A program made the position numbers and the translations under genes. 64,000 nucleotides of DNA from a virus, in IMG/VR virus record IMGVR_UViG_3300023491_000002; one strand, given 5' to 3'. Of the stretch, positions 57,969-58,196 are shown in pieces (the first letter of the stretch is position 1; every line of letters starts with the position of its first letter). The notes beneath the pieces are model-generated. The model searched no databases and was not told the DNA's origin. It worked only from the letters and a program-made list of their open reading frames with translations.

Positions 57969-58020
57969 CTTTGTAATCCCCAGTAGGGAAATAGGTGTGG
58001 AAGGGAGCAACATTTTGCTA
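57969..58020 (+). repeat. Interspersed GC-rich mini-element, copy G (in the large non-coding region)
   Basis: CTTTGTAATCCCCAGTAGGGAAATAGGTGTGGAAGGGAGCAACATTTTGCTA. Confidence 0.85.
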
Positions 58021-58149
58021 TTACTCATGGTTATTCTAATATTATTAAAGATACTTCTACCACTGCAAAACTTATGAATCTTACTCATGCTTATTCAAAA
58101 TACATTGAAGATGCTTATATTAACTCTGATAATACGGGTGATGATACGG

Positions 58150-58196
58150 ATGTTCCGCGCGTCACCAGTCCTTCTTCCCTACTGGGGTCTGCTGAT
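58150..58196 (-). repeat. Interspersed GC-rich mini-element, copy H (in the large non-coding region, converging with copy G)
   Basis: Reverse complement reads CAGCAGACCCCAGTAGGGAAGAAGGACTGGTGACGCGCGGAACATCC. Confidence 0.8.

Follow-up and report, generated by a model that had tools for sequence, protein, structure and literature searches.

Cluster A mycobacteriophages carry about 20-30 asymmetric 13-bp stoperators, the binding sites of L5 gp71, across the whole phage genome. Most of these sites lie in short intergenic gaps near stop codons, their orientation tracks transcription in both arms, and one phage-encoded factor binds them. As dispersed polar phage sites they are the closest analogy to the family of elements that we describe here, which differs from them in length (about 55 bp, not 13 bp), in having four of its 12 copies inside ORFs and in breaking the orientation rule at three of the 12. 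To our knowledge, crAss-like phages, to which the present genome is related, are not known to be temperate.

Other systems share single traits with this family. Two of the copies, G and H, form a facing pair on opposite strands of a non-coding, origin-like region with repeats and AT-rich tracts, as do ssiA and ssiB in the RSF1010 oriV and G4-type signals. Moreover, a dedicated primase recognises the two near-identical ssi signals in the form of single-stranded hairpins, and this phage encodes a primase-like protein. The ssi stems, however, are stable and at least 7 bp long, whereas the present stem has 4 bp and folds like shuffled sequence, and there are ten further copies genome-wide. REP, BIME and REPIN sequences are likewise GC-rich relative to the genome, dispersed in both orientations, often arranged in inverted doublets and located after stop codons and at convergent gene ends; but each REP is a palindrome in itself, lies strictly outside genes and belongs to a numerous class linked to a RAYT transposase, and here there are only about 12 copies, fixed in position and in some cases inside ORFs. 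Rickettsia palindromic elements also occur both in frame within protein-coding genes and between genes, but these are palindromes of 100-150 bp whose presence varies, whereas the copy in the UDG gene of this phage encodes the most conserved motif of the protein in its clade. Finally, as in the invertons of Bacteroidales, inverted-repeat pairs in this phage enclose 135-340 bp of non-coding DNA next to operons, and the closest relatives of this phage infect Bacteroidales; here, by contrast, both orientations are never seen, the repeats are 55 bp long and imperfect, and inversion of one pair would cut a gene. Dispersed polar cis-elements are already known in phages. A literature search turned up no account of this family, nor of a comparable one in Crassvirales.

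The crAss-like phages are among the most abundant human gut viruses, and we know of no mapped replication origin in any of them. A deeply conserved polar family offers a concrete candidate cis-signal for crAss-like replication or early transcription, and the element can also serve as a simple marker by which to recognise sequences of this clade.

Genome context of the G/H pair

The window, by which we mean the whole 64-kb stretch of DNA that was analysed, has a base composition of about 31% G+C. The interval 4-26 kb is taken up by two giant ORFs on the plus strand, 2877 and 4416 aa long. A minus-strand replication module occupies 26.5-57 kb and encodes a DNA polymerase, a ligase, a Dda-like helicase, ThyX and a RecT-like protein, alongside which the phage also encodes an exonuclease; a block of plus-strand genes starts at 59272. 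The cumulative GC skew has its maximum at about 26 kb, the convergent gene junction, and its minimum at about 57 kb, the divergent one. The closest known phage is the uncultured cr127_1 (Crassvirales, Crevaviridae), which has the same gene order and a DNA polymerase of 38% identity; a primase-like gene at 34761-35825 encodes a product 39% identical to the annotated DNA primase of cr127_1. At the nucleotide level, GenBank phages gave zero matches to the window. A tRNA search of the window found none, and a tRNA-related origin of the elements was rejected on that ground.

G and H are located at the divergent junction, where the following features were delimited:

57074-59271, no strand assigned: non-coding region of the divergent junction, at the cumulative GC skew minimum; holds G, H and the repeats
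57111-57950, within the non-coding region: hypervariable repeat zone; close relatives differ here by indels, and the next clade shows no similarity
58440-58560, within the non-coding region: polypurine tract
58650-58712, within the non-coding region: (TA)n and alternating purine-pyrimidine block

Motifs of the type TTACTCTAAGTA are also present in this region. The initial annotation had spoken of a large non-coding region; this is accurate for about 57074-59271 and fails for 51-54.7 kb, which seems ORF-poor and is in fact crowded with small genes on the minus strand whose protein products are conserved. At 57890-59270 no codon-position bias was seen in any frame, and polymorphisms among 21 close relatives fell evenly on the three positions; in the control, four neighbouring genes put at least half of their changes at third positions. 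A coding signature was also absent from 57111-57950 and from an 81-aa ORF at 43588-43833. Protein coding of the G-H region was rejected on the same basis, as neither the ORF at 57987-58370 nor the single ORF in L025 has the signature seen in the gene controls, and so was stop-codon recoding, as read-through of TAG, TGA or TAA opens no clean long ORFs in the nominally non-coding regions. Since alternative codes fail to open the region and it shows neither codon-position bias nor a coding signature, we take about 57074-59271 to be truly non-coding.

G and H belong to a dispersed family of elements

The core sequence CCCCAGTAGGGAA occurs eight times in the window within two mismatches, against 0.29 expected from shuffles, none of which (0/100) reached eight. 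A profile was built from the core copies and used to search the window at E <= 1e-6; the copies extend to about 55 nt, and 11 were found. A twelfth member of the family, c12, lies inside a 795-aa ORF just right of the window. The two facing inverted elements that had drawn attention to the locus are among the 11, as copies of about 55 nt, G on the plus and H on the minus strand, 135 nt apart. The copies in the window are:

7760-7816, minus strand: c1, inside the 2877-aa ORF, where it is translated as SSAPDQSLPPTGGYKA; profile score 37.4 bits
11789-11841, plus strand: c2, inside the 2877-aa ORF, where it is translated as NSLTPDREGAVEGSGT; profile score 24.5 bits
26246-26300, minus strand: c3, at the convergent junction; it follows the 4416-aa ORF and a hairpin interpreted as the terminator of that ORF
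26477-26533, plus strand: c4, at the convergent junction, 37 nt beyond the stop codon of the last minus-strand gene
35835-35890, plus strand: c5, between the start of the primase-like gene (10 nt away) and a terminator-like hairpin with a T-run (judged by eye)
43450-43505, minus strand: c6, embedded in a UDG-family gene (42995-43588, minus strand), where it codes for NSLIPSRGQGLEGSGT
43844-43900, plus strand: c7, 338 nt upstream of c6 and inverted relative to it; kept in L174, L175 and L177
49349-49401, plus strand: c8, fills the 81-nt gap between two minus-strand genes and begins at a stop codon
52948-53001, minus strand: c9, between two small minus-strand genes, overlapping the upstream TAG stop codon
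57959-58014, plus strand: G (c10), with the G-rich strand on the plus strand; core at 57978-57990; profile score 48.9 bits
58150-58206, minus strand: H (c11), with the C-rich strand on the plus strand; core at 58175-58187; profile score 50.6 bits

The family consensus reads AGCTTTGCAAA-CCCCAGTAGGG-aanaAGG-agTGG-nnnnGnGCGGAAC. Pairwise identity over the family is 55-79%, the element is GC-rich relative to the genome and single copies are barely palindromic. Three close pairs (less than 400 bp apart) occur, all of them inverted, with spacers of 135, 176 and 338 nt; 7 of the 11 window copies stand outside any close pair. Three copies lie directly upstream of start codons (c5 by 10 nt, c7 by 11 nt, c8 by 31 nt), and c3, c4 and c8 come after stop codons. 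The copies embedded in ORFs (4/12) are read in different frames and orientations, and the element is therefore not a peptide motif.

Our reading, which we hold tentatively as quite possibly correct, is that this dispersed family, with copies of about 55 bp at no fewer than 12 loci, would consist of polar recognition sites, and that G and H would bracket a divergent control or origin region. The elements would then act in cis as recognition sites for a putative lineage-specific factor supplied in trans. They would be read with polarity, probably on the C-rich strand, where a 4-bp hairpin would stand beside conserved flanking blocks. G and H would frame the 135-bp centre of the control or origin region, with one copy pointing into each arm.

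Each copy keeps its place across a clade of phages

A pattern scan of viral contigs led to 120 fetched loci, 73 of which carry true copies, and all the copies found in relatives map to the loci of the window. Two clades are well sampled: at the nucleotide level, clade A is 93-98% identical to the window and clade B about 70%. In each, G and H are retained at an identical core-to-core distance of 187 nt, and between the clades G and H are far better conserved than the spacer that separates them. L181 (exonuclease 84% identical) also keeps the pair, its members separated by 60 nt. L178 has a pair upstream of this operon too, but in a rearranged region and with the two copies, 87 nt apart, arranged the other way round, which counts against the reading given above. 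In all, an inverted pair in the non-coding region is kept in four lineages. Lineages with a UDG of 57-62% identity retain c5, c6 and c7 together with copies in c8- and c9-like positions, and judged by the exonuclease the relatives retaining copies are 80-84% identical. No copy was found in L180 (exonuclease 53% identical) or in the first 45 kb of cr127_1. Among 185,579 bacterial and archaeal genomes that were scanned, the only hits were chance matches and phage contigs mis-binned into MAGs (two of about 94 kb and one of 26 kb carry copies), and a host-derived sequence or a mimic of CRISPR repeats was rejected on this result. Across the genomes covered, the family is specific to one clade of uncultured crAss-like phages and absent from more distant ones, and its members are fixed and ancient, each held at one genomic position across lineages. 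One further candidate, stop-codon read-through at c8 and c9, was rejected, as the spacers are open and in frame in the window and not in clade B.

Could such a pattern be left by a repeat that does nothing? A selfish or neutral dispersed repeat, akin to REP/REPIN, to a MITE end or to a Rickettsia palindromic element, could have spread early and been kept similar by occasional gene conversion. It would account for the use of both orientations, for the inverted doublets and for a location that is usually a short intergenic gap and occasionally an in-frame site inside an ORF, and the reverse orientation of the element is free of stop codons in all frames. The phage also encodes RecT-like and exonuclease proteins, and changes at the right end of the element are shared among the copies of a genome: the block that reads GCGGAAC in the window reads GCGACAY in most intergenic copies of L174, L175 and L177 (8/10), and in clade B the right half of c8 matches the right half of window c5. 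This within-genome co-variation fits a shared recognition factor or occasional gene conversion, and rare conversion among copies could mimic part of the conservation as well. However, no insertion polymorphism was seen, the same sites are occupied across deep lineages, no copies reside in bacterial genomes and there is no transposase or RAYT-like gene among the ORFs scanned. Across 118-144 unique copies the same 20 or so positions vary hardly or not at all, yet individual loci keep differences of their own, so that conversion must be rare and purifying selection is needed to account for the conservation. Membership of the REP/BIME/REPIN class itself was rejected, with four copies inside ORFs, a stem of only 4 bp and fold z-scores near 0. 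We consider a functionless repeat unlikely, all the more so given the conservation of rare codons in the UDG gene described below.

Selection at the nucleotide level inside the UDG gene

The gene that contains c6 (42995-43588) matches Pfam UDG at 1e-8 and has the third-position bias of a coding sequence, with 29 of 40 changes at third positions. The stretch encoded by c6 is the most conserved of the UDG protein in the clade. Over its 48 nt (16 codons), synonymous change between clades A and B is almost nil, whereas flanking codons vary at 9 of 14. The element also imposes codons that are rare in this genome: CCC (6% of its codon family), AGG (4.5%), GGA (15%), GGG (2.5%) and AGC (4%). The CCC, the AGG, the first GGA and the AGC are retained in all lineages examined. 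Because rare codons are kept and synonymous change is nearly absent, selection is acting on the DNA (or RNA) sequence of the element itself, even within coding sequence.

A possible short hairpin and strand polarity

Variation in the core is one-sided. The CCCC run is invariant and the GGG(R) side changes only from G to A, its three positions being altered in 27, 8 and 95 of the 144 unique copies; in the paired CCC no C-to-T change was seen except for a T at the outermost C in 2/144. On the C-rich strand, the stem YYYC-UAYY-GGGG forms its four pairs in 286 of 288 cells, and RNAalifold detects the hairpin on this strand only. With changes confined to one side, the stem exceeded neither of its two controls, and no consensus structure or covariation was found beyond the stem of 3-4 bp. 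When single copies were folded as DNA, neither strand did better than shuffled sequence (z from -2.0 to +1.4). The one-sided variation is thus suggestive of a hairpin on the C-rich strand, short of proof, and the strand asymmetry could also reflect base-specific contacts on double-stranded DNA. The arrangement of G and H on opposite strands of a 2.2-kb non-coding region at the GC-skew minimum is that of an ssi-type signal; the stable single-strand hairpin expected of such a signal is absent, as the z-scores of both strands show. A structured RNA was rejected as well. Rfam gave 0 hits at the gathering threshold over the whole window and two sub-threshold chance hits in 57000-59400, neither of them on the elements, and the lack of covariation and the folding of single copies point the same way.

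The elements tend to be oriented along the genome. At 9 of 12 loci (c1, c3, c4, c5, c7, c8, G, H and c12; p ~0.07) the C-rich strand follows gene direction and GC skew, and the exceptions are c2, c6 and c9. Polarity flips at c3/c4, the convergent junction at 26.3 kb, and at G/H, the divergent junction at 58 kb. The initial annotation had described G and H as the mirror image of another pair; the mirror arrangement is real, and it is better explained by this flip of family polarity at the two strand-switch junctions. At the nine loci the C-rich strand would also be the lagging-strand template, provided that replication begins at the skew minimum. Genes and GC skew run the same way in this genome, and sequence alone therefore cannot tell transcription from replication.

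What the elements might do

With regard to function, we lean, at low confidence, towards a role at the DNA level, in which the elements may mark or prime the lagging-strand template or act as polar roadblocks for a protein. It is favoured because four copies lie inside ORFs, where a promoter or a terminator would be awkward. With an origin or priming in mind, the region at the skew minimum is rich in repeats, AT and polypurine sequence, and c5 is 10 nt from the primase-like gene. In a fuller version, which we regard as possible and on balance doubtful, the 12 or so copies would serve as genome-wide, strand-specific punctuation: the C-rich strand would carry a signal, made of sequence plus mini-hairpin and overprinted even on coding DNA, that a phage-encoded enzyme reads, either the primase or replisome loader or the injected virion RNA polymerase, and G/H would mark the origin or the start of early transcription. 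If true, this would make it the first such cis-signal, for replication or for early transcription, to be defined in Crassvirales; in phi14:2, the one phage studied, early genes yielded no shared promoter motif (10.1101/2020.03.07.982082).

A role at the transcript level, as a leader, processing or termination signal, ranks next and seems improbable to us. The placement of c5, c7 and c8 before start codons and of c3, c4 and c8 after stop codons speaks for it. In phage phi14:2, non-coding RNAs are produced at high levels from long intergenic regions (10.1101/2020.03.07.982082).

The elements may also be ordinary double-stranded operators for a phage transcription factor, with no strand-specific step, G and H serving divergent promoters. 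Conservation of primary sequence in several blocks over about 45 bp would be expected of such sites, as would their use in either orientation; the three copies directly upstream of start codons and the position of G/H at the divergent junction also agree with this. On the other hand, four copies are deep within ORFs, c3 and c4 sit at a convergent gene end with nothing to regulate, and the purine-only, one-sided variation fits a hairpin. No full Bacteroidetes-type -33/-7 promoter was found beside the copies, and around the pair sigma-70-type promoters, Bacteroidetes-type promoters and intrinsic terminators were no commoner than chance and were rejected. Operators of this kind strike us as a rather unlikely explanation.

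We give little credence, too, to an explanation at the RNA level. Here the G-rich and C-rich copies carried on one transcript (G/H, c7/c6, c1/c2, c9/c8) would form a long-range duplex that serves as an RNase III site or in translational control, or an abundant non-coding RNA from the 2.2-kb region, of the sort transcribed from the intergenic regions of phi14:2, would carry both polarities and pair in trans with the other copies. Every copy that is G-rich in the mRNA does have a C-rich partner in the same arm, and an 11-nt invariant core would suit a seed. In addition, c6 and c7 share 30.0 matches within genomes versus 28.4 between genomes, the best of 24 permutations, and in three lineages most positions at which G and H differ could still form G·U pairs on the minus-strand RNA, an argument that rests on very small numbers. 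Yet no covariation or consensus structure exists beyond the 4-bp hairpin, pair members are not preferentially complementary, partners 3.6-4 kb apart are unlikely to pair, and c3, c4, c5 and c12 have no partner. Co-evolution of pair partners was likewise tried and rejected, with a weak signal only.

The G/H pair is unlikely to be a bipartite structure

The initial annotation had proposed that G and H work jointly as a bipartite structure, either a DNA cruciform or hairpin, or an invertible or mobile cassette carrying direct repeats. We now find this very unlikely. The pair does contain complementary arms of 23 nt (57978-58000 and 58165-58187; 83% complementary), and when 57955-58210 was folded, z-scores of -4.7 (DNA), -3.2 (RNA, plus strand) and -5.2 (RNA, minus strand) were obtained; strong folding of this kind follows from any inverted repeat. 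The inversion of all three close pairs of the family, the retention of an inverted pair in four lineages and a flank, CTCTCCAGT, shared by the pair members of L181 would also suit a joint structure. However, G and H are merely 57% identical over 49 nt, at the low end of the family, and are not more alike than any two copies. In clade B, G has changed to CCCCAGTAGAGA (...AGTAGAGA) and H to CCCCGGTAGGGA (...GGTAGGGA), with no compensating change. A cruciform was rejected on these grounds: its arms are complementary, but changes are uncompensated and partners are not preferentially alike.

The two kinds of cassette fare no better. Spacer lengths fit those of invertons (about 100-750 bp), but inverted interiors were seen in 0/49, 0/22 and 0/13 cases for the three pairs in assembled relatives. 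Inversion between c6 and c7 would cost the UDG gene its first 27 codons. Among the roughly 40 ORFs covered by scans with PHROGs or Pfam, no site-specific recombinase was seen. For a MITE or mobile cassette, the interiors of the three pairs are unrelated (they share one chance 9-mer), the pair lies at the same site in every lineage and no presence/absence polymorphism was seen. The low identity of G and H, the uncompensated changes, the lack of inversions, the unrelated spacers and the cut that inversion would make in the UDG gene thus lead us to reject cruciform, inverton and MITE as the main explanation. For the locus as first described the practical outcome is negative, in that G and H form no special cruciform or cassette and the repeats between them are a local duplication.

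Two further candidates were dismissed: a G-quadruplex, as the first tract is often GAGA or GGAG and the clade B copy of G retains only two GG runs, and a DGR template or variable repeat, as the A of TAG is invariant, the A of CCCCAG nearly so, and variation is not adenine-specific.

A 60-nt repeat between G and H

The interval between G and H is:

58015-58149, no strand assigned: G-H spacer, non-coding; holds a direct repeat with a 60-nt period and is poorly conserved in clade B

Direct repeats of about 40 bp had been reported here, and we recovered them at 58021-58059 and 58081-58119, with 77% identity over 39 nt and a spacing of 60 nt. At an offset of 60, 29 of 38 positions match, a value reached by none of 300 dinucleotide shuffles (mean 20.3, sd 1.4). 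In the clade B spacer the repeat is not significant (23/38, equalled by 34 of 300 shuffles), and it is limited to one clade. It is a tandem duplication peculiar to this lineage and shows no sign of having a function. Since the L181 pair has only 60 nt between its copies, the 135-nt spacer may have arisen by tandem duplication of a 60-nt unit, as this comparison suggests. The spacer varies in both sequence and length (60, 87 and 135 nt), and in both it is dispensable. A third repeat, AAAGATACTT, had been placed to the right of the pair; it is present at about 58359-58368, within a block that is conserved in relatives. The left flank of H also carries a 10-nt insertion (TAACGATCAG) relative to clade B.

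Sequence blocks flanking copies G and H

The inverted element copies G (57959-58014, plus strand) and H (58150-58206, minus strand) lie in a non-coding region that contains several further blocks. A second motif, TTACTCTAAGTA, occurs eight times in the window at no more than one mismatch, against 1.1 occurrences expected, and four of the eight are grouped around G and H:

57785, 57913, 58249 and 58342 (also 58322): TTACTCTAAGTA motif near G/H

Similar motifs are held by the non-coding regions of two related viral loci, L178 and L181. The third AAAGATACTT repeat recorded in the initial annotation falls within the conserved block that holds the TTACTCTAAGTA motifs. 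Two further blocks follow, the first of which is kept both in clade A (relatives at 93-98% nucleotide identity to the window) and in clade B (about 70%):

58440-58560: polypurine tract spanning about 120 nt; it contains AAGGGGGACTATAGGGGGTA
58650-58712 (L178, 300-360; L181, 2750-2770): (TA)n runs, then an alternating purine-pyrimidine GC block (GCGCATACGTGCGTGCGTATATATAG)

All lineages examined carry this GC block again in their non-coding region.

To the left, copy G marks the end point of a hypervariable repeat zone (57111-57950) with an A-rich plus strand and unit spacings of 24, 48, 96, 120 and 284 nt. Relatives of 95% identity differ here by indels, the zone has no similarity to clade B, and it carries no coding signature.

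Coding and possible leader intervals

The interval 51000-54700, seemingly poor in ORFs, holds a series of small minus-strand genes of about 35-115 aa, which are conserved with clade B at the protein level. One reading frame is common to eight consecutive segments, with a single stop codon between neighbours; TAA, TAG and TGA are all represented. Several of the products are membrane-like.

Between copies c7 and c6, the 21 variants of an 81-aa ORF (43588-43833) split 6, 7 and 8; since they show no codon-position bias, this interval may be an untranslated leader of the operon encoding uracil-DNA glycosylase and DNA polymerase. Elsewhere, a clear terminator-like hairpin with a T-run (GAGGGTAGAGCAATCTATCCTCTTTTTTTG; minus strand, 35900-35960) directly precedes copy c5 and a primase-like gene.

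A twelfth copy of the element is found in relatives within a 795-aa ORF, whose expected place is at about 67.7 kb, just past the window end:

L181, 11798-11857; L178, 9969-10029; L179, 9606-9663: twelfth element copy

Probable mosaicism and related contigs

The exonuclease (60170-61225) shares 95% protein identity with its counterpart in the related locus L025 (10945-12000), whereas the adjoining DNA is only about 70% identical between clades; this contrast suggests that the genome is a mosaic shaped by recent recombination.

Three phage contigs belonging to this lineage (L190/L203/L215, JAAUYS010000080.1; L191, CAJUAL010000008.1; L194) sit in MAGs that carry the labels Clostridia, Vampirovibrio and Akkermansia; two measure about 94 kb and the third 26 kb. 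Their placement probably reflects misbinning rather than the identity of a host.

Relatives have a DNA polymerase region divided around a GIY-YIG gene, and LAGLIDADG/Hint domains on another large ORF represent intein- or intron-type insertions (L177, 10579-13908; L179, 5277-8693).
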